The notes: generated by a model from the letters alone, not told the origin. A stretch of 64,000 nt of DNA from a virus (IMGVR_UViG_3300021963_000033), one strand, 5' to 3'; counted from the first letter of the stretch, positions 4,373 through 63,754 are shown. Program-made: numbers and translations.

Positions 4373-4399
4373 CACGTTTCCTTTTCTCATCATATTACC

Positions 4400-4427
4400 A
4401 CTATACCTGAAACTGGAGAAATGTCAA
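4400..4427 (-). promoter_or_regulatory. early promoter, family member
   Basis: GGGGCTTGACA-16-TATAGT. Confidence 0.55.
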
Positions 4428-4651: not shown

Positions 4652-4652
4652 A

Positions 4653-24954: not shown

Positions 24955-25772
24955 CTGTTTGCTCCTAGTAATTGCGTCGAGAGATTTACCAAGTTCGGAT
25001 AGAAAGTTGTAAACACTTCTCTCACCTCGTCGGCGTTTACAATTTGGTCGTATGGGTCTAGAGGTAGTTGTTTTTCATTAAAGACTCCGTATGCGAGTTT
25101 TTTCTCAGACTCATCTAAGTGCGCTGCCATCGAAGTCAATTCATCATATTCGACGACAATGTGACTACCGACAATATTAGTCATGATTTTTTTGTTATGT
25201 TCTTCCAAAAGATAACGACCGATGATCATGGATTTTAGTTCTGGGATATCAACACTTAAAGAATTGGAGTTTTTTCCGCTTCTGAAAATCATTGTTTTCT
25301 TGGAAAAGTAAGTGCTGAGAATCTTGTGCTCGAAATTGCGATTGACATATACAAATTTAAAATCCAGTTTCTTCAGAAGTTCTAAACTAGCAGTAACTGA
25401 AAGAAAGGTAAGTCTGTCATCTAAGAATACGCGACATGTCATTGGTTGTGCTGGATCTGCTCGCTGTATCTTTTCTATCCAGTCTTGACCTATCGCGGGG
25501 AGCATTTCAACATTTCTACTACTCGACATTTTACCGTTGCTATCAGTCATCATCTCGAATGATAGTTTATTATTTTCGTCGATTTCGATATTGAAGAAGT
25601 ACGCAGAATTGAATGAGAAGAAATCCTCTAGCGGTACTCCGCCATCAAACTTTTTGCCGATCGAATAGTTAAGCAGGGATTCGGTGAGTTGTGTTCCAGA
25701 TCTCGGAACACCCAGAACACAGTATCTATGATGCGATAGATTCCATGGGAGCGGATCGGACAACTTTATCAT
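24951..25772 (-). CDS. sulfotransferase family protein
   Basis: VLGVPRSGTQL matches the 5'-PSB-like P-loop, with a downstream RN..E motif. AAGGAAAA SD. Confidence 0.5.
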   Translation of the reverse strand: MIKLSDPLPWNLSHHRYCVLGVPRSGTQLTESLLNYSIGKKFDGGVPLEDFFSFNSAYFFNIEIDENNKLSFEMMTDSNGKMSSSRNVEMLPAIGQDWIEKIQRADPAQPMTCRVFLDDRLTFLSVTASLELLKKLDFKFVYVNRNFEHKILSTYFSKKTMIFRSGKNSNSLSVDIPELKSMIIGRYLLEEHNKKIMTNIVGSHIVVEYDELTSMAAHLDESEKKLAYGVFNEKQLPLDPYDQIVNADEVREVFTTFYPNLVNLSTQLLGANR

Positions 25773-25784
25773 TATGTTTTTTCC

Positions 25785-27401: not shown

Positions 27402-28267
27402 TAATCAATTACCTTTTTTGCATTTATTTCTGCCATTGATAATTGTCTATGTGGTTCATTGGTTATCTCCAATGCATCACCATATCCTTTACAGAATCTA
27501 CATGCATTTATGTTTATTTTTTCGCTGCTAATTGCCTCATGATAGTTTTCGTTAAACTGATCATTAATCGGTATACCATCCAGTTCCTTTAAGTCATATG
27601 GTAAAGGAACACCGATTGCTTTGTAGTATCCAGGACGATGCATACTTACAGCACACCGATAGTATTTTCCATCCATGAACGTGCCGCAATAGGTTTTCCC
27701 AGAACAAGAGGTATATACTGCTTGTGCGGTTTCTTCATCCAGTTCTTCAAATTGATCCAGCACACGAAACTCCTCTCCCCATGCCAATACTGAATGTGCT
27801 TCCTTGGACATTTCCTCTTGTTTCCAAACTCCAATACTTTTTGGATGGGACGGAACATTTTGTAAGTTCCAACGTTGTCCTCTTCTATCTAGATAGTCAA
27901 AAATCTTGTCGTAGTTTATTCCTGCATTTTCATACTTACTGAAAGTAACGATGTCACAATTGTCATAAAACTCATCTGGCATTGTCATTAGTTTCAATCC
28001 ATTCGTAAGAACGGCAGTAACATCACATAATTTGCTCTGCTTTGCGTATTTTAGATATTCTGTAATCTCTGGATTGAGCGTCGGTTCACCCCCAAGTAAA
28101 CGCAGGACACCAACATGCATGTATTGCGAGAGATTGTCTACATCTCGCTTGAAACTTTCTAAGTCTGAAAATTCTTCATCACGGTATGGAGATCCAGTGA
28201 TGCAGTTTGCGCATTTTAAATTGCAATGCCAACTTATGTAGTAATCAGTAGATCCGAGATTAATCAT
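27401..28267 (-). CDS. radical SAM protein with C-terminal Cys cluster (SPASM/twitch-like)
   Basis: CNLKCANC is a CxxxCxxC motif near the N-terminus. Extra C-terminal cysteines (CAVSM...CRFCKGYG). Confidence 0.6.
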   Translation of the reverse strand: MINLGSTDYYISWHCNLKCANCITGSPYRDEEFSDLESFKRDVDNLSQYMHVGVLRLLGGEPTLNPEITEYLKYAKQSKLCDVTAVLTNGLKLMTMPDEFYDNCDIVTFSKYENAGINYDKIFDYLDRRGQRWNLQNVPSHPKSIGVWKQEEMSKEAHSVLAWGEEFRVLDQFEELDEETAQAVYTSCSGKTYCGTFMDGKYYRCAVSMHRPGYYKAIGVPLPYDLKELDGIPINDQFNENYHEAISSEKININACRFCKGYGDALEITNEPHRQLSMAEINAKKVID

Positions 28268-28902
28268 TATTTTTCATTCCATTTAATTGATTCCAGAGTC
28301 TGCAAAAATGACTCTCGATGTGCCTCATTCCAAATAAGATAACCAATCCACTGTTTTACGCCGCGAATCTTAATTGGACCCGCAGATTTCATTGTCGGAT
28401 GAATTCTTACTCCAGGTTTGGCATAATGTTTACCGTTTTCCATAAAATATCCAGGATGTTTTTTTGGATCATTTATTTCAATGTATCTAGGATATAATCT
28501 AGAATTGTATTCATTTACTGAAGAGAATGCGCCAAACCGTCCAGTTTCCATACTTATATCTATGGCCAAATCATGAATAGCACCCTGCACTCGAGGCAGG
28601 GTGACTCCAGGGACTGTATAACTGCGAGAACTTAAATGTGTCATTTTTTCATCTATATCAGAAACTGAGAAACCACTGCCACATAAAATTCTATCATCTT
28701 TCTTATGTATTATATATCCATTACCACTACCATTATACCGTTTTTCTACATAAAGTAAATATAAAAACGAGGATTTATTTTCTTCCCATCCAACAGGACT
28801 CATGTTTTCTGCTCCTGGACGCGGATCTCCCAGAGATGCTTCACAAAATGGAAGAATCTTTTCTATGGGATAACTACTATCAATTTTCTCTAAATCAATC
28901 AT
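28267..28902 (-). CDS. hypothetical protein (possible acyltransferase-like)
   Basis: ORF translationally coupled into the operon; no firm motif. Confidence 0.45.
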   Translation of the reverse strand: MIDLEKIDSSYPIEKILPFCEASLGDPRPGAENMSPVGWEENKSSFLYLLYVEKRYNGSGNGYIIHKKDDRILCGSGFSVSDIDEKMTHLSSRSYTVPGVTLPRVQGAIHDLAIDISMETGRFGAFSSVNEYNSRLYPRYIEINDPKKHPGYFMENGKHYAKPGVRIHPTMKSAGPIKIRGVKQWIGYLIWNEAHRESFLQTLESIKWNEK

Positions 28903-29540
28903 AATATATTAAGACGAATTCGTGCTTCTTCTAGATCTTCATTAAACAAATCATCATAATTTTCTGCGAGTAAGAACTTAGCATTTGTCCCTCGCAGATA
29001 TGCATGTTTGACCATGGATAGATTTTTGTAAGAAAGACCATATTTTAATGAACCAAGCAAACATATCGCAAACCAACCAAGCGATTTTGTCTGTGCAAAT
29101 GAAAATGCTGCGAGACAAATTTCACCTGTATCATTTGCAGGATATCCTGTCAACGTGTGCCAAGTGTCATGTGTGTCGCGATACCTACGTGCCATCCAAT
29201 TATATGGATGTTTTGCTTCGATCCATTTGCTGTTGTTTGATTTTCTTCTGCTGAGTTTCAGTAAGATTTCTTGGTTCGGAAATAGTTTGTGACATTCTCT
29301 ACCAACAGACCCTTCTGGTCTCTCAGAAAGTGTCGGGAAATACTGCGAAATTTCCTCGGAGTTATACACAACCTCGCCGCCTGTTTTAGTCTTCATTAAC
29401 TGATCAAGACTCCAGCGCAATGATGGCGGATTTAATGCATGAAGGATCTCGAAAATGAAAATTGTGTTTGCAGGATTTTTGCGCAGTTTCTTAAATGCTT
29501 TGTATGCACGAAGATAGTCAATTTTGTATTCTAGTCTCAT
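28899..29540 (-). CDS. Coq4-like (HDxxH-x10-GE) family protein
   Basis: HDTWHTLTGYPANDTGE matches the Coq4 metal-binding signature. Confidence 0.35.
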   Translation of the reverse strand: MRLEYKIDYLRAYKAFKKLRKNPANTIFIFEILHALNPPSLRWSLDQLMKTKTGGEVVYNSEEISQYFPTLSERPEGSVGRECHKLFPNQEILLKLSRRKSNNSKWIEAKHPYNWMARRYRDTHDTWHTLTGYPANDTGEICLAAFSFAQTKSLGWFAICLLGSLKYGLSYKNLSMVKHAYLRGTNAKFLLAENYDDLFNEDLEEARIRLNIL

Positions 29541-30276
29541 CTACAATAACCTTCAATTCGCGAAGCACTTTTTTAATTTCAATCGGATTACTCAGGAAGG
29601 CATAGAAGTTTCCACTATCTTCCAAGTCGTAGACATATAGATGCTCATTAGTAAGAACATAGTTTATATCTGGATTATAGTATAATTTATATGATGCTAC
29701 GACATCCTCTGAACCGAGAAATGTCTCGTCGAAATCGAAGGAATTAATAACTTTCTTGGAATACAGTAACATTCTATTTTGCAGAAGATTTGCCGCCAAA
29801 AATTTACCGAGTTCGATTAGACGCAATCCATGCGAACCTTTTACGTTAGCGAACTTGTAGATATCTGCGCTGTTGAAGAACGCATTACCTGTGGTATTAG
29901 TTCCATTATAAGTCATCGCTCCATCGATCAAACCAATAACATCAACATCTGGATTTTCGTTCACAATTTTATCAAGTTTGATCAGTGAATCGGGAGCAAG
30001 ATAGTCATCTGCATCAACTTGCATGTAATAGTCATGCGAACGAGTTCGAAAAATCTCTAGAACAGAATTCTTCCCCTTCGCAGGTGTCCCGTTAGATTCA
30101 GTTACCAGAAACTCTAAATTGTATTCCTCGGCAACAGATCTCGCTTGCTCTACAAATGAAAAATCGAGAGTGTTGCATACCACAACCACATCACTGGTTT
30201 GAGGCAGAACACTCTCGATACAACGTTTTAATTTTTCAACATTCCTTGAAGTAAGGACTGCGACCAACAGATTCAT
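29518..30276 (-). CDS. family 2 glycosyltransferase (GT-A fold)
   Basis: N-terminal nucleotide-sugar binding (VVVVCNTLD) and a QVDADDY DxD motif. Confidence 0.6.
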   Translation of the reverse strand: MNLLVAVLTSRNVEKLKRCIESVLPQTSDVVVVCNTLDFSFVEQARSVAEEYNLEFLVTESNGTPAKGKNSVLEIFRTRSHDYYMQVDADDYLAPDSLIKLDKIVNENPDVDVIGLIDGAMTYNGTNTTGNAFFNSADIYKFANVKGSHGLRLIELGKFLAANLLQNRMLLYSKKVINSFDFDETFLGSEDVVASYKLYYNPDINYVLTNEHLYVYDLEDSGNFYAFLSNPIEIKKVLRELKVIVDETRIQN

Positions 30277-31564: not shown

Positions 31565-32362
31565 TTACTTAACGTTTACGATACCCTTGAAGTCGTAAGG
31601 AACGATAATGGTAGAAACCTTACCTTCCTTAACTGCTTCCGCGATTGTCACAAGAGCAGTCGCTTCCATGTATTTAGTAGCACCAGCGTTGGCATTAAGA
31701 GCAGCAATACGTTCTGCTTCCAACTTCGCGGTACGAACCTCTACCAACTTCTGCTTCTCAGCATTTTGTGCCTGAACAAGTTGGTTAGCAGACGCTACGA
31801 TACTCGCAGCAGGTTTTACCTGACGAACAAGAACCTGCGAGATCGAGATAGAACCATCGAGTTTCTCAGAGGCAAGTTGCGCTACAATCTCTTGGCGAAC
31901 CAATTGCTCAATCTCAGCACGATTGTCTGCCATCTTCAATGACTCGTAACGACGAGCAACCTTGTAAGCAGCATTACGACCCAACTGACGAATGTAATTA
32001 TACATCAACAGTGTATCGCCTTCTTCGGTTTCAGCGTGGAAACCACGATTCTTTTCTACATAGATTTCAGCAGCACTAGTTGGATTGATCGAGTAGATTA
32101 CTGACATATCAAAGTCAGCAACAGTCGAGTTATCAGCAGCAAGTGGTGTCAAATCAGTTACATCAACCTGCACGTCCTTGGTAGGAAACGTCAAAACATC
32201 ACCGAAGATGGTTTGGTTCAGAGATCCTGGTTGTAGTTCGGTGGTTTCAATCTGCTTGTAAGCATCACGACGAACACCAACTTCACCAGTTTCAATACGA
32301 GTACAGGCAGCAGTGGTTGCCATCAGACCAGCGAGAAGAACGACTTTAGTAACACTTTTCAT
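31565..32362 (-). CDS. SPFH/band-7-like lipoprotein
   Basis: Start reassigned to MKSVTKVVLLAGLMATTAAC (lipobox) with an AAGGAA SD. The C-terminal Ala/Glu-rich helical region resembles SPFH proteins. Confidence 0.45.
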   Translation of the reverse strand: MKSVTKVVLLAGLMATTAACTRIETGEVGVRRDAYKQIETTELQPGSLNQTIFGDVLTFPTKDVQVDVTDLTPLAADNSTVADFDMSVIYSINPTSAAEIYVEKNRGFHAETEEGDTLLMYNYIRQLGRNAAYKVARRYESLKMADNRAEIEQLVRQEIVAQLASEKLDGSISISQVLVRQVKPAASIVASANQLVQAQNAEKQKLVEVRTAKLEAERIAALNANAGATKYMEATALVTIAEAVKEGKVSTIIVPYDFKGIVNVK

Positions 32363-32376
32363 AATAACTTTATTCC

Positions 32377-32553
32377 TTAGAAAATCAAAACGATTCCAGT
32401 AATAACGACCATCGTTAATACAGTACACACTATACTATAAGCAAGCAATTTAGTCAAGCTTATTTTTTCAGACTTATTCATTTTTCTGAAAGTATCAATG
32501 CCAACGATGAATCCAAACAGGATGACCATGAAGGCAACAATCATTTTACTCAT
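32377..32553 (-). CDS. small membrane protein (58 aa)
   Basis: AAGGAA SD; its stop overlaps the downstream RBS. Absent from the ORF track. Confidence 0.4.
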   Translation of the reverse strand: MSKMIVAFMVILFGFIVGIDTFRKMNKSEKISLTKLLAYSIVCTVLTMVVITGIVLIF

Positions 32554-33218: not shown

Positions 33219-33260
33219 ACTAGTCTCCTTATACTAGTATTTATATTTTTAGAGCATTTA

Positions 33261-34994: not shown

Positions 34995-35071
34995 CCATTT
35001 ATAAATAAGTTTGTGTGGTTCACGATGTTGACGCATCCAACCACTCTAACGCTTTCAAGGAGCATCAGCAC

Positions 35072-36090: not shown

Positions 36091-36208
36091 ACAAAACTTA
36101 TTTATACCTAAAACGGAACAGTCCCCGCTGCTCTGTATTACTGTTTGCTCAATGGGGTTTCACAGGGTCGACCCTGCCTCTATTCTATGCAAACAAACCG
36201 CAGTATAT

Positions 36209-39722: not shown

Positions 39723-39780
39723 CTTATTTATTCCTGCTAGGTAGACCTGCTTTTATTTATAAGATAGGTATTTTTAGAAA

Positions 39781-39960: not shown

Positions 39961-40030
39961 TAACAATGTCAAAGAACTGAAACTTTATTTATACACTCTA
40001 CTATACTTTTTAGAGAAAGTCAAGTGTTTT

Positions 40031-41675: not shown

Positions 41676-41709
41676 CGTTGTTCCTTAACTTGAGGTGGAA
41701 AGAATTTAT

Positions 41710-42216
41710 TTATAAGGTCGCTGAAGATTTTTTTGGCGACTTCTTCTTCTTAACCTCTGGTGCTTTCCAACCTGTCAAGAAACTTTCAAGAACTTCCGCG
41801 AGACGAGGATATGCTTCGAGCAAAGTTTGATCCTTGATATGATCAAGCAACTTCGCTTCTTTAATCTGCACACCCTGACATGTCTGCATCCAGATTTCTT
41901 CTCGGCGGAACTGCGGGACTCCCTTCGCAGTGCCTTCTGGCAACAGAGTTAAAATGCGACGGAACTCCTGTGTGATGGTTGTATCTGCCATGTTAGATGG
42001 CAGACCTTCATCCTTATATGGAGTTGGACCCTCGGGAAGATTGTATGGACCTTGCTCATAACCAACACCCCATGCAACAAATCGCATGAGAACAGAATTG
42101 CCGATGGAGATTGCTCTCACACGTTCGCGCAATTCGTCAGTTGTTTCTGCTGCACATGCCCAGTCAAGTGCTTCATCAATTTGTTTAAATTTCTTGGGTG
42201 CTAGTCTTTGTGCCAT
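41710..42216 (-). CDS. hypothetical protein
   Basis: 168-aa ORF. Confidence 0.5.
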   Translation of the reverse strand: MAQRLAPKKFKQIDEALDWACAAETTDELRERVRAISIGNSVLMRFVAWGVGYEQGPYNLPEGPTPYKDEGLPSNMADTTITQEFRRILTLLPEGTAKGVPQFRREEIWMQTCQGVQIKEAKLLDHIKDQTLLEAYPRLAEVLESFLTGWKAPEVKKKKSPKKSSATL

Positions 42217-54629: not shown

Positions 54630-55181
54630 TTACTTCCTTCTAATCAGTACAGCAGGTGCACCTACTGTGTTTTTCTTTTTATATTTTTTCTGCTGACTCT
54701 TGGTAAGTCCAGGTTCTGCTTGGTTTGCTTTTGTTGGATGCGGAATACCAATCCCTGCGACTCCACCACCACCAACACCCATCTCTTCAATAAACTGTTT
54801 GAATGACTGGATTTTTCCTGTCTCGAGTTCTTCAGCGAGATCCTTAACATCTTGGCGTTCTTGTGTCATGTAAAAAACTTCCTCTAATATTTCATCATCA
54901 TATTCAACCTGCTCTCTTACCAAAGCAACAGCAGCAGCGAATGATAGGAAGTTCTTATTGTCCATAGGAACCTTCTCGATGATTCGTTTTAATCTAAATA
55001 CCATTCTATGAAGCAGACTATATGCCTCTTGTTCTTCAGTGGTATTTATCTCGTTCTCTTTCTTCAATCGATTGCCATGCTTATCGATCAATCCTAGACG
55101 AAATGCATCCTGTTGATCGAAAGGTGTAGTCAACAACCTTAGAATACGATATGTTATCAGTGCATCTACAAATCTAGACAT
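54630..55181 (-). CDS. hypothetical protein
   Basis: ORF. Confidence 0.45.
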   Translation of the reverse strand: MSRFVDALITYRILRLLTTPFDQQDAFRLGLIDKHGNRLKKENEINTTEEQEAYSLLHRMVFRLKRIIEKVPMDNKNFLSFAAAVALVREQVEYDDEILEEVFYMTQERQDVKDLAEELETGKIQSFKQFIEEMGVGGGGVAGIGIPHPTKANQAEPGLTKSQQKKYKKKNTVGAPAVLIRRK

Positions 55182-56001: not shown

Positions 56002-56844
56002 TTATGCAGTAACAGTAAGAGTTACTGCTGAAGAAGTAACGCTGTCCGCGCCTGTCGACGAAACGACACAACGGAACTTAGCATTATTCCAAGTCGAAGA
56101 GGTATCAGTCTTTGCGGCGAGAACGCCCAATGTTGCTGTGGTCGCACCAGTAAATACACCACCATTCGGGTTAATATCCGAGTAACTTGTTCCGCCGTTT
56201 ACTGAATGTTGCCACAGATATGTTAGAGTTGCAGTTTCAGGAACGATTGTTGCAACAACAGTACCAAGATTTACAATTGCTGCACCAGCAGCAGCAGTTT
56301 TAGTTGCAGTAGGTTGTGTTGCGATTGTGATCAAGGCATCCTCAAACACAACATCCTCAACGTCGCCAGTAATACCATTCTTTGACAGTGCAACGAGAGT
56401 TTCTACGATCTTGCGCGAACCAACTGTTCTGATCTTATTCCAACCAGTATGAGCAGCGCCCTCTTCCAATTTATTTGCTGCCATTTCTGCAACATCAACA
56501 CCAAATACTTGTGATGCTTGTGTGTTAGGATCGGATGCAATAGAAATTGGTTTTTCGCTTAACTGATATGTTTGAGCGCCAAAAGTAGTATAGTTAGCAT
56601 ACGCGGTCATGTATTCTAACTCTGGATCTGCTGGAATTACCGCAGCAACAGTGTCGCTCGTGATTGACTTGACGATCCACGAACGCTCTTGGTCAGCACC
56701 TGCTCCTGCAATTATTGCGCGGATGAAGTCACCCGCTGCAGCCTGTGTGGTGAATAGAGTATTTGAACCTGTTACTACACCAGTACTTGCGATTGACAGT
56801 GTGCCCGTCGCTGTTTTACTATCTGCTTTACCCCATGCGGACAT
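56002..56844 (-). CDS. putative virion/structural protein (Ig-like/fibre-like)
   Basis: Ala/Thr/Gly-rich repetitive beta composition. Confidence 0.45.
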   Translation of the reverse strand: MSAWGKADSKTATGTLSIASTGVVTGSNTLFTTQAAAGDFIRAIIAGAGADQERSWIVKSITSDTVAAVIPADPELEYMTAYANYTTFGAQTYQLSEKPISIASDPNTQASQVFGVDVAEMAANKLEEGAAHTGWNKIRTVGSRKIVETLVALSKNGITGDVEDVVFEDALITIATQPTATKTAAAGAAIVNLGTVVATIVPETATLTYLWQHSVNGGTSYSDINPNGGVFTGATTATLGVLAAKTDTSSTWNNAKFRCVVSSTGADSVTSSAVTLTVTA

Positions 56845-58589
56845 TAATTGTCTCCCTTTTTAAATTCTAGATCTACGTGATTGAAAAATTCTTTTCTTTT
56901 CGATTCATCAAGTTCCGAGGGAGACTTGATACCATATTCATTAAGAGCAGTTTCAAATGCAGTCTTATATGACTCGTTCATTTGCTTTACTGCATCAATA
57001 TCTTCTTTTGTCAGTTTATTAACTGCTCTCGAGATACCCTTTTGGCGTTTGCCCATGTCCTTAAAGTTTCCACTCGACTTCTCGTCAGCAGCAATCCTTA
57101 GTCCAGCACTAACACCTTTTGTTCCGATACGTTCTGCTGCTTTGTTAACATAAGAACCGAGAGTCTTCTTTGAGAGTTCGTCGATCTGCTCGAATGCTTC
57201 GTTAAAGTCAAGTTCTTCCTTGACTGCAGTCTTAGCGGCATGAATTGCATCATGTTGCTTTTGATCGATGATGCGAACTTTCTTGTTGTGTGAGAAACTG
57301 TTGTAGTGATTCAGAGCAGCATATGCCTGAGTCGGGTGAACAGGAATATATGACTTGCCGCCGTGATGCGCATTAGTGATTTCAACATACTGCTGATTTT
57401 CATCAATCTGCTCAGACTCTTCCTTAGTCAGTTTCTTGACAGCGGTTTCGATACCTTTGTGACGCTTCGATAACTTCTTTTCCATATGCTTCGAAGGACT
57501 ACCAGCACCGGCTTCTTTATACCCTTGTCTCCAGGCAGTTAGATCGATAGAGTTTTTCGCTTTGTTAATATAGCGACCTGCCATTGCCTTCGAGATCTCA
57601 TCGACCTGTTCGACTTCTTCTTTGGTCATCTTAGATTTATTCATCGATTGAATTTTATTCAACGCTTGGGCAGCAACCTTCTTACGTGTCACCGCGGAGT
57701 GCACCGAAGATGGGAAATGCGTATTAACTGCAGATTGAATAGCAGTATGGATACTGTCATGCTTACCTGCTCTAACATGTAGATGTGCAGTTTTTGCTAC
57801 ATCTGCCACTGATGCTTCGGTAATCTCGACTTCTTCCTTGGCAAGTTTATCAACTGCTCTCTTGATACCTGTCTCGCGATTCTTACGGAGACGCTCTGCT
57901 TTATCATAAGTTGCTTGGTTGAATCTTGAACCGAAGTGTCCTGTTTCACTGTCACCTTGGTATGCAGCGATCTTTGTCAGAGGAACATTCTTTGGACTCA
58001 TTACATTCTTTGGTTGTTCAGCACCTGATGCTTTCTTAACATAAGAACCCATGGTCTTCTTTGAGAGTTCGTCGATTACCTCGACTTCTTCATTCTTCTG
58101 AGCATTCATTGCCATGTCACCTTCGTAGTCATACTCTTGCTTTTCTTTTGCTTCATCGAGCATTGACTTACCGAGTTTCTTGCGAACTGCCTTTGAAAGT
58201 TTTGACGGATCGACACCGAAGTCTTTGGCAGCAGACATAACATGACTCTTACGAATGTTGTCACCGTAACGTTTAGTCAGATGAGCAACGATCGGAGCAT
58301 TTTCGTCGAGTTCAACTTCTTCAGCAGCATATGACTTAGCACCAGCACGTGCCTTATTGAATACTGTGTCATCACCGAGAACAATGAACATCATCGAGTT
58401 GATGAACATGTTCATTACATCACGCTCAGCACCCTGAAGTGACATACCAGCATGCATTCTAGAAATGGCACGCTTCAGAAGTGGCAACGAACTTGTTGGC
58501 ATCAAACCAGCGCGAACCAACTGGTCGAGTCTGCCATCCATATCCATCGCTTCAGTCATTGTTGACCTAATAGTTTGTTCTAGTCTCAT
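56844..58589 (-). CDS. large Lys/Ala-rich internal-repeat protein
   Basis: Three copies of a roughly 100-aa module (…DELSKKT(M/L)GSYV(K/N)KA…KRQKGI..AV(N/K)KLTKE…). Confidence 0.5.
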   Translation of the reverse strand: MRLEQTIRSTMTEAMDMDGRLDQLVRAGLMPTSSLPLLKRAISRMHAGMSLQGAERDVMNMFINSMMFIVLGDDTVFNKARAGAKSYAAEEVELDENAPIVAHLTKRYGDNIRKSHVMSAAKDFGVDPSKLSKAVRKKLGKSMLDEAKEKQEYDYEGDMAMNAQKNEEVEVIDELSKKTMGSYVKKASGAEQPKNVMSPKNVPLTKIAAYQGDSETGHFGSRFNQATYDKAERLRKNRETGIKRAVDKLAKEEVEITEASVADVAKTAHLHVRAGKHDSIHTAIQSAVNTHFPSSVHSAVTRKKVAAQALNKIQSMNKSKMTKEEVEQVDEISKAMAGRYINKAKNSIDLTAWRQGYKEAGAGSPSKHMEKKLSKRHKGIETAVKKLTKEESEQIDENQQYVEITNAHHGGKSYIPVHPTQAYAALNHYNSFSHNKKVRIIDQKQHDAIHAAKTAVKEELDFNEAFEQIDELSKKTLGSYVNKAAERIGTKGVSAGLRIAADEKSSGNFKDMGKRQKGISRAVNKLTKEDIDAVKQMNESYKTAFETALNEYGIKSPSELDESKRKEFFNHVDLEFKKGDN

Positions 58590-58622
58590 TAAATGATTCC
58601 TCTAATCTTTTATCTATTTATA

Positions 58623-59060
58623 TTACTTTGAGGTTGCGAGAAGCATCCAACCATGTTTAGCATGAACATCAAGACGCCCTTCAAGATGGTTAACAAGACC
58701 TCTGTTACCTTCTGCTTCTGCTAATTTATGTGCAGCATTCAATGCTTCGATGACTGCCGCATTAGCATCCATTAAATCTTGAAGCATCGAAGGGATATTG
58801 TTACCATTGATTGATGAATCTTTGATGGTTGCAATGCTAGACACAGTATCTAGTCCATATGGTGCATAATCATCTAGTGCACGAATCTGCTCAGCAATCT
58901 GATCAACCGCAGCGAATAGTTCTTCATAGATGTTCGAAAAGAAGTCATGCATTTGGGAGAAGTCTTTGCCTTCTACATTCCAGTGATGTCCATGTGCTTT
59001 GAAATACATCGCAAAAGTATTTGCGAGCACTATCTTCATTGATGTGTTCAGTTCATCCAT
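58623..59060 (-). CDS. Dps-like ferritin (DNA-binding ferritin-like protein)
   Basis: ANTFAMYFKAHGHHWNVEG...F...H..F....EE closely follows the Dps ferroxidase-site signature (HW.V.G..F..LH). Confidence 0.6.
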   Translation of the reverse strand: MDELNTSMKIVLANTFAMYFKAHGHHWNVEGKDFSQMHDFFSNIYEELFAAVDQIAEQIRALDDYAPYGLDTVSSIATIKDSSINGNNIPSMLQDLMDANAAVIEALNAAHKLAEAEGNRGLVNHLEGRLDVHAKHGWMLLATSK

Positions 59061-59061
59061 G

Positions 59062-59349
59062 TTAACAATTCCATTTTCTTAGTGCTAGTGCCTTGCGAGT
59101 CGGACGACCCTTTTCGTCTTTCATTGGACCATCGACGCCAGACATTCTAGCACAGAAAGACTTGCGACGATTCGCTGCTTTACTGCCTGCCTTCAACTTA
59201 GAAGGTTTGGTTGTTACTGGTGCCTGTAGATTGCCGCCATACTTGTTGTTGTAATAGTCGCGACCCTTCTGAGTTAGACCACCAGTAGAACTCTTATGAC
59301 CCTTGCCGTCAACTGCTGCTTCAGCAACAAATTCTTTAAATGAAAGCAT
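59062..59349 (-). CDS. hypothetical basic protein
   Basis: ORF. Confidence 0.45.
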   Translation of the reverse strand: MLSFKEFVAEAAVDGKGHKSSTGGLTQKGRDYYNNKYGGNLQAPVTTKPSKLKAGSKAANRRKSFCARMSGVDGPMKDEKGRPTRKALALRKWNC

Positions 59350-59350
59350 C

Positions 59351-61780
59351 TTACTTCCTCTTCTTCATTCTGCTGTTCTTGATTCTTGACTGCTCAAGTT
59401 TACGAACTGCTGGCATGACTCTGACAGATAGACGAGCAACCATTGGTGCCATACGCTTTATCTGTGCTTCGAGACGTGTCTTTTCAGATGAAGATACTGT
59501 CGAAATATCTCTATTACGCAACAGTCTCTTGTAAACCATGCGACGAGCAGCACGAATCGATCTCGATTTAAGTTTTTCTGGTGAAGACACACGCTTGATT
59601 GCAATATTTCTTGCCATCATTCGACGACTCTTAGAACGCATCGCATTGAATTTTTTCTTGAGACGACCAGCAGGAGTAATACCTTCCTCTAGTTCTTCGC
59701 CTTCTTCTGTTTCAGGTGAGTCATCATATTCGATTTCATCTTCGTCATAGAGATCTACTAAATCATCCCACGAAAGAGCAAGAACATCTGCTTCTAGTTC
59801 TTTTTCGAATGCTTCTTCATCGAAATCTTGGAAGCGAATATCTTCATCATCGTGTGAAATTACTGGTGAGATTTGATCACCCGAACCCTTGTGCGCTTCA
59901 TATGAATCAACATGGTGCGTTCCCATTTCAGCGGTGTCACACATCTGGCAGCAGTCTGGAGTTCCACAGTTCTCGTGAACACTTTCAGCAATTGTCTTCA
60001 TAAATTCAGCATGCGATTTGTGAGCACGCTTCTGCAGTGCTTCTTTTTCAATAGAAGACTTGGCAGAGTTATACTTGTTCATGAATACATCAGCATGGTT
60101 AGGGGCAATTGTGTGATGCTGACCATCTTGGAAGTGAACCTTAGAACCAATGCTTACTGCTTTGCGCAGTTGCATTACAAGGTGCGGCGGTTCTTTTGCT
60201 TTTTCTGCTTCTTTTTTCTTAGCAAGAGTTTTCTTTGCTCTTGCAATATTCTTAGGATCTGCCAGTGTTTGTCTGACTTTTGATTGGAACTTAGCACGTG
60301 CCTCTGCGCCCTTGGCAGAAATCTCAGCAAGATAACCTTCTCTGATTCCGCCACAGTATTGAGTAGTTACATCGTCGTAACGTGGATCGAATGAAGGAAT
60401 CTTATCTGCTGTCATACCTTCTTGTCCTGGAGTCATAGCAGCAAACTTCTTGCGTAGTTCTGGACGACCCCATTCGTTGTCCTTACCCAAGACTTCATCA
60501 AGTTGAACGCCCTCTGGAAGAATGCTCGACTTAGTGACCTTCGACTTGAACATCTTATGATCAACACCGACTCTCTTTGCTGCAACCTTGTGAGCATGAG
60601 CAGTGTTCTGCGCCTTAACGTGAACCGAACCAGCAGCGACTGCCTTGCCAGCATGTTGCTTAGGGAAGTCTACCTTCCACATGCCGTATGCTTCTTCGAT
60701 CTCAGATTCTTCTTTAATGCGACCTACTTTTTGATTAACAGCGGACATAAGTTTCTTATGATCTACGCCCGCAACACGAGCTGCGTGGACTACATGACTT
60801 TTACTAAGATTTTGTTTATCGCGCTTTATCAACATGTCGGCATACTTGTCTATGTTTACTTCTTCCTTGACAGCATTCTGACGAAGACTCTTGTAACGAC
60901 GGATAGCAGATTTGCGCTCCGAAGAACCACCAGGAGTTTTTATAAGATCAGCATATGCTTTCTTGATTTCTGGATTAGTTACGCCTTCATCAATTTCAAC
61001 TTCTTCATGCATCGCAGGATTATATGACTTCTTGAAGTGAGCGAATCTGCTAGTGATGTTTTTATCCGTTGGATTGTCAGCAATGTGACGACCATGCGCA
61101 GAGTCAAGGAAGTGTTTTACCATTACGTTTGGTTTCTTCGCATCTTGAAGATGTCCAGCATCGCCTACTAGTTTCTTAGCATAACGATGCATGGCAGAAT
61201 ATCTCTTATCTTTCTCAGCATCGTCGCGTGCTTCTACGTTACCATGGTAACCATAACCCTTGTTACCAGAAGTAACACGAGTCAGTGCTTCATCAAGTTC
61301 TGCTTCTTCATTAGTCTTCGTTGGAAGATGCGGAGTAACCTTAAACTTATGCAATGGACCTTTGGCAACTTGACCGTCTTTGTGGGCACGAATATGAACG
61401 CTTGCGCCATCGTTCTTTGCAACAATACCAGAATGCTTATCGCCATTTCCTGGGAGATAATAATCTACCTCGTCACCCTTCTTCATGTGCTTTGCCATGT
61501 CAGGGTGCATTAAACTGTGGGAAGCATAGTCACGATGACTATATGATGCTTCTTCGAGGTTAGTTTCTTCGGGTAGAATGAAACGCTGCGAATCGATCTT
61601 GGCGCCAGTCAATGGATCTTTCTTCAACTTTGCTTTCGCCTTCTCGATAATTTCTCTTGCTTCAGGTACACAGTTAGGAACCATTCTATCGCCTTTCTTT
61701 TTCATGCCGACACGCTTGTAACCCTTCCAGCAAGGATCGTCTTGTTTTCCTGGTTTGCCGATATACTTTTTTTCTGCCAT
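59351..61780 (-). CDS. very large repeat protein with an acidic tract and an extremely basic C-terminus
   Basis: Repeated VGVDHK(K/M)..S.V modules, an acidic EDEIEYDDSPETEEGEELEE tract, then a 120-aa Arg/Lys-rich tail. Confidence 0.5.
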   Translation of the reverse strand: MAEKKYIGKPGKQDDPCWKGYKRVGMKKKGDRMVPNCVPEAREIIEKAKAKLKKDPLTGAKIDSQRFILPEETNLEEASYSHRDYASHSLMHPDMAKHMKKGDEVDYYLPGNGDKHSGIVAKNDGASVHIRAHKDGQVAKGPLHKFKVTPHLPTKTNEEAELDEALTRVTSGNKGYGYHGNVEARDDAEKDKRYSAMHRYAKKLVGDAGHLQDAKKPNVMVKHFLDSAHGRHIADNPTDKNITSRFAHFKKSYNPAMHEEVEIDEGVTNPEIKKAYADLIKTPGGSSERKSAIRRYKSLRQNAVKEEVNIDKYADMLIKRDKQNLSKSHVVHAARVAGVDHKKLMSAVNQKVGRIKEESEIEEAYGMWKVDFPKQHAGKAVAAGSVHVKAQNTAHAHKVAAKRVGVDHKMFKSKVTKSSILPEGVQLDEVLGKDNEWGRPELRKKFAAMTPGQEGMTADKIPSFDPRYDDVTTQYCGGIREGYLAEISAKGAEARAKFQSKVRQTLADPKNIARAKKTLAKKKEAEKAKEPPHLVMQLRKAVSIGSKVHFQDGQHHTIAPNHADVFMNKYNSAKSSIEKEALQKRAHKSHAEFMKTIAESVHENCGTPDCCQMCDTAEMGTHHVDSYEAHKGSGDQISPVISHDDEDIRFQDFDEEAFEKELEADVLALSWDDLVDLYDEDEIEYDDSPETEEGEELEEGITPAGRLKKKFNAMRSKSRRMMARNIAIKRVSSPEKLKSRSIRAARRMVYKRLLRNRDISTVSSSEKTRLEAQIKRMAPMVARLSVRVMPAVRKLEQSRIKNSRMKKRK

Positions 61781-62292
61781 TACTTTTTCGCTTTCTTGTT
61801 TAGTTCGTCGATCGCTGTCTTGTTATCCGCAATCCATTTCTGAAGAGCAATCAATTGCTCGGCGTTTGCTTGACAGGTTGCGTAGTTTCCGATGATGGTG
61901 AAGAGGGCTTGATTGTCTGCAATACCTGAGGGGGACGCATCAGAACTTCTGGTGGCGTCGGCATTACTGCCTGTGGCACTAGCGTCGTGCGTGAACACCC
62001 AACCATTAGAAAGGACAGACTGAGAAGGCACAACAGTTTTGGCGACATCGCGATAGACATATTCTTTTTCCCTAATTGTATTTACACGGTCAACATATTG
62101 AGTCACCACTTCAGTGGAGATCTCTGAATTTTTCTTTTCCATATCTGCAGTTAATGTTGCATTCTTAGCAGCAAATCTTTGCAGTTCCACTTCGGCATGA
62201 GCAGATCCCTTCATGTAACCAAATACAAATACACCAAGTATCAAGGCAACACCTGCCAGTAACTTATATGGTAATGGGATCATACCGAACAT
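61780..62292 (-). CDS. i-spanin (Rz-like)
   Basis: N-terminal TM anchor followed by periplasmic coiled coil. Contains an embedded +1-frame lipoprotein ORF. Confidence 0.45.
   Translation of the reverse strand: MFGMIPLPYKLLAGVALILGVFVFGYMKGSAHAEVELQRFAAKNATLTADMEKKNSEISTEVVTQYVDRVNTIREKEYVYRDVAKTVVPSQSVLSNGWVFTHDASATGSNADATRSSDASPSGIADNQALFTIIGNYATCQANAEQLIALQKWIADNKTAIDELNKKAKK
61851..62060 (-). CDS. o-spanin (Rz1-like), embedded in the i-spanin gene
   Basis: Signal plus lipobox LMVGC followed by a Pro-rich mature region, wholly inside 61780-62292 in another frame. Confidence 0.45.
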   Translation of the reverse strand: MSIAMSPKLLCLLSLSFLMVGCSRTTLVPQAVMPTPPEVLMRPPQVLQTIKPSSPSSETTQPVKQTPSN

Positions 62293-62313
62293 ATCAATTT
62301 CCTTTTCCTATAT

Positions 62314-63141
62314 TTATTCTTCTGGATTTGCTATCAACAGCAAACTATATTCACAGGTTGCTGGAGTGCCAGAGTTTGATGCGATCATCGTAACATCTAT
62401 ATCAGTTTTTTCAGGTAGAGGAAGTGGAACAGCAAATGTATAATCAAATACAGATTGATACAATAAGAATGTCATTGCATGTTGGAACGACGAACCATAT
62501 GGACGATACTTGAAGTATCCTTTACCGTCATTACCCTTACCAATATTCGCAGTACCTTGCAACATGTATCCAGTATAACCAGCAGGAATGGTATATTGTG
62601 CGCCTTGAGCAATACCTGTTTGTGGTGCAATATGACCTACGCAGGTTCCATTTCTGTTAGCATGGATTTCACCAATGTTTGAATTCGTTGTTCCGCTATA
62701 GTGCAGGTAATTCAAACGGGCATAAGAAAGAGAGGTAACAACAGGAGTTGTGCCGTTAAGAGTTATGGTTTCAGTTTGTGATGCAAATGTAGATGCATTC
62801 AATCCCTGAATAAGAATTGTTCCTGTGTCGCTGGTAGAGGAACTAACAAGACTTAACGTTCCTGGTGTCGACCATGCCGACCAAGGATATATTTCAGAGT
62901 GCGACCAGAAACTTTCTTCTGTGCCATTAGCAAACGCTTCGTTGTATCCTGCCTTGAACACCCCTGACATACCAGGAACAAGACCACGAGCAACATTCAA
63001 TCCAAAGGTGCTATTTTCAGAAACAGCAGCGCCACCTGCTTGTGTGACAGGAAGAGGATTAGCAGTTGTTACCAACTCACCATCTGATGTTACAAGACCA
63101 TGGGTCTCATAGAATTCGTCATTAACTCTAATCTGTGCCAT
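62314..63141 (-). CDS. putative structural protein
   Basis: Gly/Thr/Ser-rich beta-type composition. Confidence 0.45.
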   Translation of the reverse strand: MAQIRVNDEFYETHGLVTSDGELVTTANPLPVTQAGGAAVSENSTFGLNVARGLVPGMSGVFKAGYNEAFANGTEESFWSHSEIYPWSAWSTPGTLSLVSSSTSDTGTILIQGLNASTFASQTETITLNGTTPVVTSLSYARLNYLHYSGTTNSNIGEIHANRNGTCVGHIAPQTGIAQGAQYTIPAGYTGYMLQGTANIGKGNDGKGYFKYRPYGSSFQHAMTFLLYQSVFDYTFAVPLPLPEKTDIDVTMIASNSGTPATCEYSLLLIANPEE

Positions 63142-63142
63142 C

Positions 63143-63754
63143 TTAGATTCCTAGAAATTGTTTGAATGAAATTGACTCTTGGATTCCAAGACCACGACGA
63201 ACATCTTTATACATCTCATGTTTGTGTGGTTTAGACATAGAACTTGGTGCCATGGAATGGAATGTTTTCTCATCACCTGAGGATGCTGCATTGCGCATCT
63301 TAGTTGCGGATGCACCAGCAACACCTTCGTCAGCATCAGTTCTAACTGCACCTACTGTCTTCACTTTTATCGAATCGAAATTGTAATGCCCATGGCGACC
63401 TTCGACATTATTATACTTGTTTATTAGGGAATGATAATCATGTGCTCTATCGGATCCAGCATGAACAACAATATTCTTCACACCTTGACTATGTAATTTA
63501 GACAAGTGGTGTAATAATGTCGGAGAACCTTTACTCAATGCTTCAACATTTGCAGAAGGAAATGCTCTCTTTAGATGCTTTACTTTAAGATCTGGAGTCA
63601 GTGGATTCTTTTTACCATCATGTGTTGCAGTTGTAAGAATAGTATGTTGTGCATTATCAGATCTTGCTGCATTTAAAACATGGTTGATCATTAGTGCATG
63701 CCCAGCATGAACAGGTGCGAATCTGCCGATAGTCAGATGGTGTGTTTCACTCAT
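63143..63754 (-). CDS. NMN adenylyltransferase-like nucleotidyltransferase (NadM-type)
   Basis: IGRFAPVHAGHALMI matches the GRFxPxHxGH motif of NadM/NMNAT cytidylyltransferase-fold enzymes. Confidence 0.5.
   Translation of the reverse strand: MSETHHLTIGRFAPVHAGHALMINHVLNAARSDNAQHTILTTATHDGKKNPLTPDLKVKHLKRAFPSANVEALSKGSPTLLHHLSKLHSQGVKNIVVHAGSDRAHDYHSLINKYNNVEGRHGHYNFDSIKVKTVGAVRTDADEGVAGASATKMRNAASSGDEKTFHSMAPSSMSKPHKHEMYKDVRRGLGIQESISFKQFLGI

Follow-up and report, generated by a model that had tools for sequence, protein, structure and literature searches.

Modular proteins of a conserved late-gene locus in uncultured aquatic T4-like phages: candidate internal head or ejected proteins

Genes and modules at the locus

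The window, by which we mean the whole 64,000-nucleotide stretch of DNA analysed (IMGVR_UViG_3300021963_000033), belongs on sequence grounds to an uncultured aquatic T4-like myovirus. Genes in T4 order were present (DNA polymerase gp43, UvsX, gp41, primase and gp45/gp44/gp62/RegA), and gp43 was 49-50% identical to cyanomyovirus gp43. Two ORFs, here called A (581 aa) and B (809 aa), were situated on the minus strand where an earlier note on this DNA had reported them, between the genes for the gp41 helicase and the gp61 primase. Their surroundings were replication and lysis genes, outside the head gene cluster. A Dps-like gene and a short DUF6321 gene separated A from B, and a run of spanin, B, DUF6321 and Dps genes was preceded by its own promoter-like site. 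The features were as follows, with the evidence in brackets:

56002..56844, minus strand, 280-aa protein with a C-terminal Ig-like region (PHROG 'head protein' match)
56844..58589, minus strand, protein A, 581 aa (ORF)
56970..57200, minus strand, DELSKKT module copy 3, A residues 464-540 (counterpart in Synechococcus siphovirus S-SKS1)
57423..57620, minus strand, DELSKKT module copy 2, A residues 324-389 (module comparison)
57837..58091, minus strand, DELSKKT module copy 1, A residues 167-251 (module comparison)
58140..58301, minus strand, helix-turn-helix-like module of A, residues 97-150, SHVMSAAKDFGVDPSKLSKAV (common to B)
58323..58589, minus strand, conserved N-terminal domain of A, residues 1-89, RLDxLVR.G..P..LP.L (about 90% identity among homologues)
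58615..58622, minus strand, T4-type late promoter TATAAATA, 26 nt upstream of the A ATG
58623..59060, minus strand, Dps/ferritin-like gene (PF00210), last of B's run (Pfam E 3.9e-22, 79.1 bits, cut-off 24.5)
59062..59349, minus strand, DUF6321 gene (PF19846), 95 aa (Pfam E 4e-26, 91.9 bits, cut-off 28.5)
59351..61780, minus strand, protein B, 809 aa (ORF)
59354..59683, minus strand, basic Arg-rich tail, B residues 700-809, net +31, pI 12 (predicted helical)
59684..59854, minus strand, acidic tract, B residues 643-699, net -27 (W..D[IV]VDLYD motif conserved)
59855..60493, minus strand, conserved B region, residues 430-642 (C-x4-CC-x2-C cluster at 605-614)
60521..60628, minus strand, helix-turn-helix-like module, B copy 2, residues 385-420, RVGVDHKMFKSKV (direct reading and conservation)
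60713..60865, minus strand, helix-turn-helix-like module, B copy 1, residues 306-356, VAGVDHKKLMSAV (module comparison)
61640..61744, minus strand, CWKGY...VPNC two-Cys module, B residues 13-47 (PHROG matches)
61780..62292, minus strand, Rz-like spanin gene, first of B's run (PHROG matches; stop overlaps the B start)
62311..62318, minus strand, late-promoter-like site AATAAATA, 19 nt upstream of the spanin gene
63143..63754, minus strand, cytidylyltransferase-like gene, end ...ESISFKQFLGI* (leader/linker remnant)

Neither A nor B had a match in Pfam, NCBIfam or among solved structures. By its profile, A was conserved over its N-terminal domain and its last 70 aa, with seven variable bead modules between them; more than 1976 metagenomic homologues were found, and the N-terminal motif was kept in 59 A-like ORFs from IMG/VR loci. 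The start codon of A was supported by the order of the late promoter, a GAGGAA ribosome-binding site and the ATG. The three copies of a DELSKKT...KGIxRAVxKLTKE module described in the earlier note were indeed repeats, pairwise 39-42% identical (E 1e-6 to 1e-9 against 978 module segments) and interspersed with unrelated modules, with a length of 66-85 aa instead of about 100 aa. Its description of A and B as Lys/Ala-rich held to a moderate degree (K 12%, A 10-11%), and both proteins were basic (pI 9.2-9.4). The repeated 'VGVDHKK..S.V' units it had seen in B were found as two copies of a helix-turn-helix-like module, of which A has one more (A 90-166 against B 306-356: 46% identity over 52 aa, E 5e-8). 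The classical A5/G9/L15 spacing could be seen by eye in its SHV..AA..GVD..KL..AV pattern. AlphaFold2 predicted the module of A with pLDDT of about 85, in models of A and B that were of low confidence overall (pTM 0.22-0.24); the only matches elsewhere were weak, namely homeodomain-like folds from Foldseek (rmsd about 2 A over about 50 residues, E 4-8) and Pfam Cro, which scored below its cut-off (E 0.036).

An acidic and basic C-terminal unit

Protein B began with the two-Cys CWKGY module, followed by variable bead modules, the conserved region, an acidic tract and a basic tail. The CWKGY module was widespread in cyanophage proteins (about 190 cyanophage records by tblastn, identity up to 91%), and its profile matched proteins of Sf-CH8 and S-B43 (E 1e-15). 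In other clades, the domain at B 430-642 formed the C-terminal part of the A-like protein. The acidic run claimed for B was present, with 51% D+E, its last residues, L-E-E699, forming a conserved [ILVM]-x-E junction with the tail. The claimed poly-basic tail was also present but measured 110 aa, not 120. Close relatives shared about 90% identity in it, and identity was 40-45% across 84 distant representatives; hydrophobic and Arg positions were invariant, and AlphaFold2 predicted four helices (pLDDT 60-85).

A histone H1-like or protamine-like, low-complexity DNA condenser would suit a tail with 33% K+R and such a charge and pI. The likeness drawn by the earlier note went no further than charge: R outnumbered K, the sequence was neither low-complexity K/A/P nor poly-Arg, and neither a Pfam linker-histone or other match nor a solved-structure relative by sequence was found. 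As the tail is a conserved, predicted-helical domain with invariant positions, always paired with a conserved acidic region and its W..DLYD motif, we regard this explanation as improbable.

Acidic tract and tail together formed a discrete unit of about 160 aa that made up the C-terminus of 84 representative proteins, 152-1045 aa in length, and occurred alone or behind enzymes (Zeta-toxin/AAA_33 kinase-like or cytidylyltransferase-like). One stand-alone unit (P0352) carried a leader of its own, starting MKRFDQFIAE, and in another locus (L011) a Dps gene preceded a stand-alone tail-unit gene. Fused forms with a cytidylyltransferase-type enzyme were found in P0377, P0381 and P0384, and the cytidylyltransferase-like gene of the window probably encodes the N-terminal enzyme of a former enzyme-beads-tail fusion, now separate from the rest. 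At the junction, in 85 representative sequences, column 697 (P3) was I, L, M or V in all 85 (I38/L33/M7/V7), column 698 was variable (Thr, at P2, was commonest, in 20/85) and column 699 (P1) was E in 83/85.

Late promoters and transcription units

Late-promoter motifs of this type are known from T4 and cyanomyoviruses (PMC2984593). All six coding-strand TATAAATA sites within the window were intergenic. The site before A was conserved in two related loci (L002 and L003), where the spanin-gene site was also found in the same place as either TATAAATA or AATAAATA. Upstream of A-like genes, NATAAATA was present in 57/59 cases, compared with 112/1020 (11%) of other ORFs. The start of the 280-aa gene overlapped the stop of A, so that the two are co-transcribed, and this gene was syntenic in 26/80 related loci.

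The N-terminus of the 280-aa protein had a weak PHROG match to tail-fibre proteins, which is the one observation in favour of A and B being repeat proteins of tail fibres or other external structures. A and B themselves were predicted to consist almost wholly of short helices, with no beta-rich or collagen-like repeats, gave no tail-fibre or tail matches in PHROG or Pfam, and yielded no significant result in fold searches. Tail-fibre or scaffolding repeats, which the earlier note had named as the contrary case, thus found no support in PHROG, Pfam, predicted structures or fold searches, and we consider an external structural role for A and B highly implausible.

Distribution of the locus

A and B are part of a large uncharacterised late-gene locus conserved in uncultured aquatic T4-like phages; neither protein A nor the tail unit was found in any cultured phage. 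Homologues of the gp21 prohead protease shared contigs with the locus in relatives (the 92-kb IMGVR_UViG_3300017949_000004 and the 43-kb IMGVR_UViG_3300033073_000062). They were 38-39% identical to T4 gp21 (E 1e-26 to 1e-30) and kept the motifs GEL.HP and GVSSRG; none was seen on the contig of the source phage itself. The head cluster had a separate gp22 homologue. In one locus (L202), a 152-aa gene, starting MKTYKQLQE and containing an EEVEQTDE linker, lay between the portal (gp20) and protease (gp21) genes, the position of T4 core genes 67/68, and shared modules with B-family proteins at 55-82% identity. T7-like podoviruses also had DUF6321, and siphovirus S-SKS1 had the DELSKKT module. T7-like phages are generally held to be without a prohead protease. 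The setting of the locus among replication and lysis genes and the occurrence of several of its module types outside T4-like phages speak against reading its products as packaged cargo.

Acidic linkers and a candidate cleavage motif

In both A and B, small modules followed one another and were connected by a conserved acidic linker, EE-V-E-x-[ILV]-D-E; this linker segments both proteins and had been missed in the earlier note. The pattern EE.[EQND].{0,2}[ILVM][DETN][EK] occurred 713 times in 242 family proteins, where 6.75 occurrences were expected from shuffled sequences, an enrichment of about 100-fold, and its density in A-like proteins was 60-fold above that in the remaining ORFs of their loci. 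In T4, gp21 cuts after L/I-x-E (PMC9026906), and the linkers and the acid/basic junction of B carried this [IL]-x-E consensus. The motif is short and neighbouring residues L701, S/T702 and R706 were conserved too, so [ILV]-x-E at the junction could be structural instead of a cut site.

A T4-like leader on neighbouring genes

The DUF6321 gene of the window started MLSFKEFVAE, resembling the T4 capsid-targeting sequence MKTYQEFIAE with which IPII and IPIII begin. In T4, residues 4 and 7 of this sequence serve targeting, and residues 8 and 10 serve processing (PMC9026906). All 30 distinct DUF6321 relatives showed M-K-[TS]-F-x-E-[FWY]-[LIV]-x-E, conserving F4, the aromatic residue at 7, the aliphatic residue at 8 and E10. 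The core pattern was present in 27/30 DUF6321 ORFs and a relaxed pattern in 25/52 tail-unit (B-type) ORFs. Of the other ORFs only 17/1023 had it, mostly those of one family of 385-417 aa from the same loci, which may be represented by the DUF6267 gene of L002 (start MQSFLSFLSEA). The pattern (aromatic 4/7, I/L 8, E 10) was absent from A (MRLEQTIRST) and B (MAEKKYIGKP) themselves and from all 59 A-like ORFs.

As proteins of the locus carry a T4-style address tag and protease cut sites, packaged cargo is suggested, and our tentative reading, held at rather less than even confidence, is that A and B are expressed late, processed by a protease and either internal to the head or ejected. The earlier note had proposed an internal head or ejected role. 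Comparative support for that proposal came from the T4-like identity of the phage, the promoters, gp21, the cut motif and the leader on neighbouring genes, and its weak point is that A and B are themselves leaderless. Also in its favour are the tail units attached to enzymes, the module-bearing L202 gene among head genes and the IP-like composition of A and B.

Possible cytoplasmic or scaffold roles

A and B could instead be late cytoplasmic proteins that are never packaged, acting in nucleic-acid binding or host takeover, for example by organising or protecting replicated DNA together with Dps; the leader and linkers would then be module-boundary or folding elements. This is a doubtful but serious candidate. 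The replication and lysis surroundings, co-transcription of the Dps gene with B and the leaderless A and B all fit it, as does the leader-like motif, which also appeared in internal positions and C-terminally in the cytidylyltransferase-like protein and so may be a generic module boundary. The spanin and endolysin genes of the region are late and yet do not encode virion proteins, DUF6321 and the DELSKKT module extend to podoviruses and a siphovirus, and a helix-turn-helix-like module and basic domains would suit nucleic-acid binding in any compartment. Left unexplained by a cytoplasmic role are the agreement of the conserved leader positions with the four functionally mapped T4 positions, the missing leader in podovirus DUF6321 homologues, an [ILVM]-x-E that is nearly invariant apart from its free middle residue and falls precisely on the acid/basic boundary, and the gene of the same modules between portal and protease genes.

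That last gene would also fit a view of A and B as prohead core or scaffold proteins, functional analogues of T4 gp22, gp67 and gp68 that would enter the prohead, be chopped at their many [ILV]-x-E sites and be mostly expelled before DNA is packaged. These T4 proteins are helical and highly charged and have multiple L/I-x-E cuts (PMC9026906). The layout of gp68 (residues 1-67 net -14, LNE|F, residues 68-141 net +23) is like that of the tail unit, nearly all A-like genes have their own late promoter, and A is co-transcribed with the Ig-domain protein matching a PHROG 'head protein'. Against this stand a profile-profile (hhalign) probability of 0.2% between the tail unit and the gp68 family (hmmsearch E 8), the gp22 homologue already in the head cluster, and the enzyme fusions, which make little sense if a scaffold is discarded. 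A size-determining scaffold would not usually show the shuffling seen, even between close relatives, in the middles of A and B; such shuffling is more characteristic of cargo that interacts with the host. We consider a scaffold role unlikely.

Comparison with known systems

Like the T4 internal proteins (IPs), A and B are basic, Lys/Ala-rich, late-expressed proteins of a T4-like phage (IPII/IPIII: pI 9.3-9.5, K 13-15%, A 14-16%), and genes neighbouring or orthologous to theirs carry the leader with the same four key positions. T-even IP genes likewise encode diverse unrelated proteins of one locus with the leader alone in common (PMC3012670). A and B differ from IPs in being leaderless, in being 3-8 times larger and in having many modules; in their locus, unlike in IPs, a leader-like motif also occurs internally, and the locus itself is flanked by the genes for gp41 and gp61 and is not beside e or 57B. 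In BLASTP against IPII/IPIII only the 13-residue DUF6321 leader aligned (E 0.06-0.1) and A and B gave nothing; beyond the leader, we found no sequence homology of locus proteins to T4 IPII, IPIII, Alt, gp22, gp67 or gp68.

T4 Alt is a packaged and ejected ADP-ribosyltransferase whose two terminal pro-segments are removed by cuts at ITE-6 and LTE-619 (PMC5694885). Relatives of B with a leader, an enzyme and a C-terminal unit containing an internal [IL]-x-E resemble it in layout, without homology; the enzymes here are Zeta-toxin-like kinases or cytidylyltransferase-like. Whereas the C-terminal propeptide of Alt is acidic and 63 aa long, the segment after the site is here 105-110 aa, highly basic and conserved. 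The stand-alone tail-unit proteins of 150-170 aa resemble T4 gp68, with its acidic N-half, L-x-E and basic C-half, and the L202 gene of B-family modules holds the 67/68 position; the 234 proteins of the gp68 family (PF26830) come only from phages closely related to the T-evens.

The ejection and inner-body proteins of the giant phages phiKZ, 201phi2-1 and SPN3US include many large head-internal proteins whose long propeptides contain several x-x-E cut sites; a gp21-related protease processes them, and they are ejected into the host cell (PMC9026906; PMC5694885). Those phages belong to another lineage, with the cleavage motif [SAG]-x-E, and no homology was detected. In A and B, the motifs resembling cut sites lie within acidic linkers of stereotyped form that separate small, shuffled modules. 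Long strings of small unrelated domains, including enzymes, are also a likeness to the polyvalent proteins of phages and conjugative elements, reportedly described by Iyer, Aravind and colleagues in these terms and as probably delivered with the DNA. Pfam found none of their signature domains in the A/B family, and BFVD fold matches to 'large polyvalent protein associated domain' proteins were not significant (E 0.3-1.7). The Dps-like protein of B's run, for its part, scored under the cut-offs of the NCBIfam DpsA models.

Proposed role in infection

We infer packaging, cleavage at these sites, DNA association and ejection for A and B, and propose that the locus works like the T4 IP and Alt genes. 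Its products would be loaded into the prohead, where a gp21-type protease would cut after the Glu of [ILV]-x-E in the EEVExxDE linkers and at the acid/basic junction of B, freeing small, mostly basic domains that include the 110-aa domain of pI 12. Before cleavage, the acidic pro-region may mask the charge of this basic domain. The released domains would remain with the packaged DNA and then be ejected into the host, and in related phages the C-terminal tail unit would take enzymes into the same packaging pathway.

Two modular proteins of a T4-like phage

Both large minus-strand ORFs were recovered where an earlier note on this DNA had placed them, encoding the proteins here called A and B, with two smaller genes between them:

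56844-58589, minus strand: A, 581 aa
58623-59060, minus strand: Dps/ferritin-like gene (Pfam E 3.9e-22)
59062-59349, minus strand: DUF6321 gene, 95 aa (E 4e-26)
59351-61780, minus strand: B, 809 aa

The note had described three copies of a roughly 100-aa DELSKKT...KGIxRAVxKLTKE module in A; the copies are real (39-42% pairwise identity, E 1e-6 to 1e-9) but only 66-85 aa long, and unrelated modules alternate with them. Its 'VGVDHKK' unit was part of a helix-turn-helix-like module of ~50 aa, present twice in B and once in A (46% identity between the A copy and one B copy, E 5e-8). The acidic tract of B (residues 643-699, net charge -27) and its basic tail (residues 700-809, net +31, pI 12, more Arg than Lys) were found as described, although the proposed likeness to histone H1 or protamine held for charge and not beyond it. 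What the note had missed is that A and B are built as beads on a string, in which a stereotyped acidic linker of the form K-EE-V-E-x(0-2)-[ILV]-[DE]-E stands between one module of 50-100 aa and the next. This motif occurred 713 times in 242 family proteins, against 6.75 occurrences expected from shuffled sequences.

A, residues 167-251, 324-389 and 464-540: DELSKKT copies
A, residues 90, 167, 252, 324, 390 and 464: linkers
B, residues 158, 259, 306 and 357, and the acid/basic junction: linkers

In A the N-terminal 89 aa and C-terminal 70 aa were conserved and the middle was shuffled; in B the N-terminal CWKGY two-Cys module (conserved pair C17 and C37) was conserved, and the C-terminal 380 aa, including acidic tract and basic tail, highly so. 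AlphaFold2 predicted helical modules at moderate confidence joined by low-confidence linkers, with low confidence for the models as a whole (pTM 0.22-0.24), and the composition of both proteins matched that of T4 IPII and IPIII. A conserved C-x4-CC-x2-C cluster with His nearby at B residues 605-614 (59939-59968; VHENCGTPDCCQMCDTAEMGTHH) could be a metal-binding site. At A residues 148-164 (~58096-58148), most of a ~60-aa module of the family consensus (EYDYEGDMA..QL..LPEWVQSKITLAEDY...) was missing, the protein reading EYDYEGDMAM/NAQKNEE in its place, which looks like a recent in-frame module deletion.

Metagenomes yielded more than 1976 relatives of A and 615 of B, the contigs reaching ~175 kb. 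By megablast, no cultured phage was near-identical to the window; by tblastn against cultured phages, A matched through one module only, in S-SKS1, B through a 25-aa CWKGY motif only, and P0352, a stand-alone tail-unit protein (the unit is described below), not at all. Searches of Pfam, NCBIfam and PDB sequences with A, B, their families and the tail-unit profile returned no meaningful match, and all PHROG matches of A and B were of unknown function. A recurrent match to Fer4_23 was set aside as spurious (E of at least 1.6e-4, below the cut-off, with the Cys residues absent). Foldseek comparison of the AlphaFold2 models found nothing significant in the PDB, and in BFVD only similar uncharacterised modular phage proteins. 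Residues 452-545 of A resembled residues 34-125 of T4 gp23 (34% identity, pairwise E 3e-5), which we take as chance because a profile built from 177 module copies did not match gp23. Several module types also occurred in podoviruses and a siphovirus.

Gene order and late promoters

The phage is a member of an uncultured T4-like myovirus clade. Its gp43 was 49-50% identical to cyanomyovirus gp43, and gp45, gp44, gp62 and RegA lay upstream in T4 order. Two contigs of 172 kb and 156 kb shared the order gp43 DNA polymerase, UvsX, gp41 helicase, cytidylyltransferase, spanin, B, DUF6321, Dps, A, Ig-domain protein, endolysin and primase. The Dps gene occupies a putative late operon, between B/DUF6321 and A; none of 80 other related IMG/VR loci carried one, and in a distant short contig (L011 3-404) a Dps gene directly precedes the stand-alone tail-unit gene P0352, which has a T4-type leader.

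The T4 late promoter TATAAATA had six coding-strand sites in the window, all six intergenic. One lies 26 nt upstream of the start of A, with a GAGGAA ribosome-binding site after it; the spanin gene, which heads the tightly packed run spanin-B-DUF6321-Dps, is preceded at 19 nt by AATAAATA, and both sites were kept in the two long contigs. The 80 IMG/VR loci were found with an alignment of a tail-unit subgroup, the broad tail-unit alignment being too diverse for locus scanning, and the synteny of the window was common to all of them. There, 57 of 59 A-like genes had NATAAATA in the 60 nt upstream, compared to 11% of other ORFs. Both NATAAATA and TATAAATA are established late promoters of cyanomyoviruses and T4 (PMC2984593). 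Sigma-70-type promoters were not above chance in 54-64 kb.

The other five intergenic coding-strand sites of TATAAATA (33238-33245, 36099-36106, 39754-39761, 39986-39993 and 41707-41714) are presumably late promoters of other genes; the plus strand had a single copy (35000-35007). The rest of the window includes an accessory region (24951-30276, 2198-3520, 31565-32428) with two radical-SAM proteins (one with a B12-binding-like N-terminus), glycosyltransferases, an FG-GAP repeat protein and an SPFH/Band-7 protein, and at 46.7-54.2 kb ribonucleotide reductase genes nrdA and nrdB, primase and an M15-peptidase/GH19 endolysin. The spanin gene (61780-62292, minus strand) encodes a 170-aa protein with Rz-like spanin PHROG matches; inside it, in another frame, a 69-aa Pro-rich ORF (MSIAMSPKLLCLLSLSFLMVGCS...; 61851-62060, minus strand) looks like an embedded Rz1-type outer-membrane spanin, its lipobox being non-canonical with M at position -3.

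A shared module pool and a C-terminal tail unit

Modules of A and B were drawn on by single proteins elsewhere. P0377, a tail-unit protein of 980 aa, has A-type modules (DELSKKT-like and EYDYEG..PEWVQSKIT), a B-type CWKGY module, the tail unit and a cytidylyltransferase-like domain all within a single polypeptide, and in other clades the region corresponding to B residues 430-640 forms the C-terminal part of an A-like protein. The cytidylyltransferase of the window (63143-63754; weak NMN-adenylyltransferase matches below the cut-off) ends in ...ESISFKQFLGI*, which looks like the remnant of a leader or linker. B starts at the CWKGY module, which in other phages directly follows such a leader, and is separated from the cytidylyltransferase by the spanin genes and a gene that matches phrog_8198. 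From this arrangement we infer that one enzyme-beads-tail gene was split by insertion of the intervening genes.

An exhaustive HMMER search with B gave 2084 matches at E<=1e-3 in a representative set of 1.8 billion proteins, and showed that acidic tract and basic tail (B ~645-807) form a discrete unit of ~160 aa. It was C-terminal in 84 representative proteins of 152-1045 aa (median 8 residues from the end), some of them stand-alone. In a scan of ten long tail-unit proteins, the N-terminal domain was a Zeta-toxin/AAA_33 P-loop kinase in five and cytidylyltransferase-like in three. The acid/basic junction was strongly constrained across 85 sequences:

Column 697: I in 38, L in 33, M in 7, V in 7
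Column 698: variable
Column 699: E in 83 of 85
Column 700: small, variable
Column 706: R in 85 of 85

L/I-x-E is the cleavage site of the T4 prohead protease gp21, which cuts after E (PMC9026906). A W..D[IV]VDLYD motif was conserved in the acidic part, which is therefore more than low complexity. The charge layout of the unit is identical to that of T4 gp68, though profile comparisons rejected homology; the C-terminal propeptide of T4 Alt showed no relation to it. Acidic and basic protein ends in Sf-CH8 and S-SKS1 resembled it in architecture only, homology being unsupported (E of at least 0.02).

A T4-type leader shared by unrelated proteins

The DUF6321 protein of the window starts MLSFKEFVAE/AAV and its orthologues MLSFKEFIAE or MLSFKQFIAE; T4 IPII and IPIII start MKTYQEFIAE/A.V, the T4 capsid-targeting sequence (read from NC_000866). 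In that sequence residues 4 and 7 serve targeting, and residues 8 and 10 processing (PMC9026906). Thirty distinct DUF6321 ORF starts gave the consensus M-K22-[TS]29-F30-x-E27-[FWY]30-[LVI]27-x-E28, and the leader was distributed over the 80 loci as follows:

DUF6321 ORFs: 27/30 (core pattern)
Tail-unit ORFs: 25/52 (relaxed pattern)
A-like ORFs: 0/59
All other ORFs: 17/1023

Most of the 17 other matches came from a single family in these loci, with ORFs of 385-417 aa that start MRFKEFLIE or MKSLRTYIAE (e.g., L024 633-1790). The DUF6267 protein of related contig L002 (7743-8861), just upstream of the locus, starts MQSFLSFLSEA, and these ORFs, in the same position, may correspond to its gene. Kinase fusions start ME-K-[ST]-F-x-D-F-V-P-L-E-E/G with the P-loop directly after, and leader-like motifs were also found inside proteins. 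The window encodes at 54630-55181 a 183-aa protein, kept in 50 of the 80 loci, in which an internal KIQSFKQFIEE/MG, possibly another leader/cut-site context, precedes a Gly-rich stretch and a Lys-rich tail. As several unrelated proteins carry the leader, one locus encodes unrelated proteins sharing only this T4-type sequence; the internal-protein genes of T-even phages have been described likewise, as unrelated proteins with only a leader in common (PMC3012670). Our literature search found no paper on DUF6321, and none tying the capsid-targeting sequence to cyanophages.

The leader was absent from DUF6321 proteins of T7-like podoviruses, such as HTVC168P gp31 and the P60 protein. In Pelagibacter phage HTVC168P (L009 2254-2755) the leaderless gene lies between scaffolding and capsid genes, a head-gene context in another phage type, and adjoins two tiny, extremely basic ORFs (35 and 49 aa). 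DUF6321 also lies between terS and terL in cyanomyoviruses, a known hyperplastic insertion site (PMC2984593), and for that reason we did not count this location as structural evidence.

Neither A nor B itself carries the leader. They could be late proteins that act purely in the cytoplasm; we consider this somewhat unlikely.

Protease and head genes

Tracing synteny through IMG/VR contigs led to a head gene cluster on L202, a contig of 171,566 bp, with gp19, gp20 portal, gp21, gp22 and gp23. Its gp21 was 39.5% identical to T4 gp21 (E 6e-29) and kept GEL.HP and GVSSRG. On two contigs the locus was accompanied by a gp21 homologue:

IMGVR_UViG_3300017949_000004, 92 kb: tail-unit, DUF6321 and A-like genes (L026) and gp21 (L348)
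IMGVR_UViG_3300033073_000062, 43 kb: a relative of B residues 430-809 (L302) and gp21 (L335)

Where T4 has its core genes 67 and 68, L202 has in the portal-protease gap (4030-4726) one gene for an acidic protein of 83 aa and another for a protein of 152 aa. The 152-aa protein has an MKTYKQLQE start and an EEVEQTDE linker (SNEEVEQTDEE), and has modules in common with B-family proteins, kinase-tail fusions among them, at 55-82% identity (E as low as 3e-22). That position speaks for the reading of A and B as prohead core or scaffold proteins that are discarded, which we nonetheless regard as improbable. The enzyme-bearing relatives have their closest precedent in T4 Alt, an enzyme that is ejected and has cut sites at ITE-6 and LTE-619 (PMC5694885).

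A possible capsid-loading system

The earlier note had suggested internal head or ejected proteins. T4-type leaders, gp21 on the same contigs and [ILV]-x-E sites favor this, but the missing leader of A and B does not, so the suggestion is supported in part. Motifs, synteny and analogy make it plausible, if tentatively so, that A and B are packaged and processed in the prohead. The locus would then correspond in function to the T4 IP and Alt genes: its late proteins would enter the prohead, where gp21 would cut them at [ILV]-x-E, itself a short motif, in leaders, linkers and the acid/basic junction. The acidic segment would neutralize the +31 tail until cut, and some of the product would stay with the DNA and be ejected. 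By analogy, T4-type capsid-targeted internal proteins would here take a modular, polyprotein-like and enzyme-carrying form.

A broader and more speculative proposal, which we think rather unlikely as it stands, is that a general capsid-loading system in abundant uncultured aquatic T4-like phages delivers a virion-borne effector polyprotein. A T4-type leader and/or the ~160-aa C-terminal unit (acidic pro-region, [IL]-x-E, basic domain) would bring cargo into the prohead. The cargo would be interchangeable: whole enzymes (Zeta-toxin-like kinase, NMN-adenylyltransferase-like), and small modules strung together that serve in DNA binding or counter-defence. Cleavage of the strings by gp21 at EEVExxDE linkers would release many small proteins to be injected with the DNA.

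Internal head proteins that are injected meet host defences before any other phage molecule does, and T4 IPI*, for one, blocks a restriction enzyme; to our knowledge, detailed descriptions of such proteins are limited to T4 and a few giant phages. If the proposal is true, a very large uncharacterised family without a Pfam entry could be read as capsid-delivered cargo in abundant environmental T4-like phages, with kinases and nucleotidyltransferases among the delivered enzymes. The targeting leader would be conserved from T4 to distant relatives, the tail unit would be a new C-terminal carrier domain, and leader, [IL]-x-E linkers and late promoter would provide a simple rule for predicting packaged proteins in metagenomic T4-like genomes.
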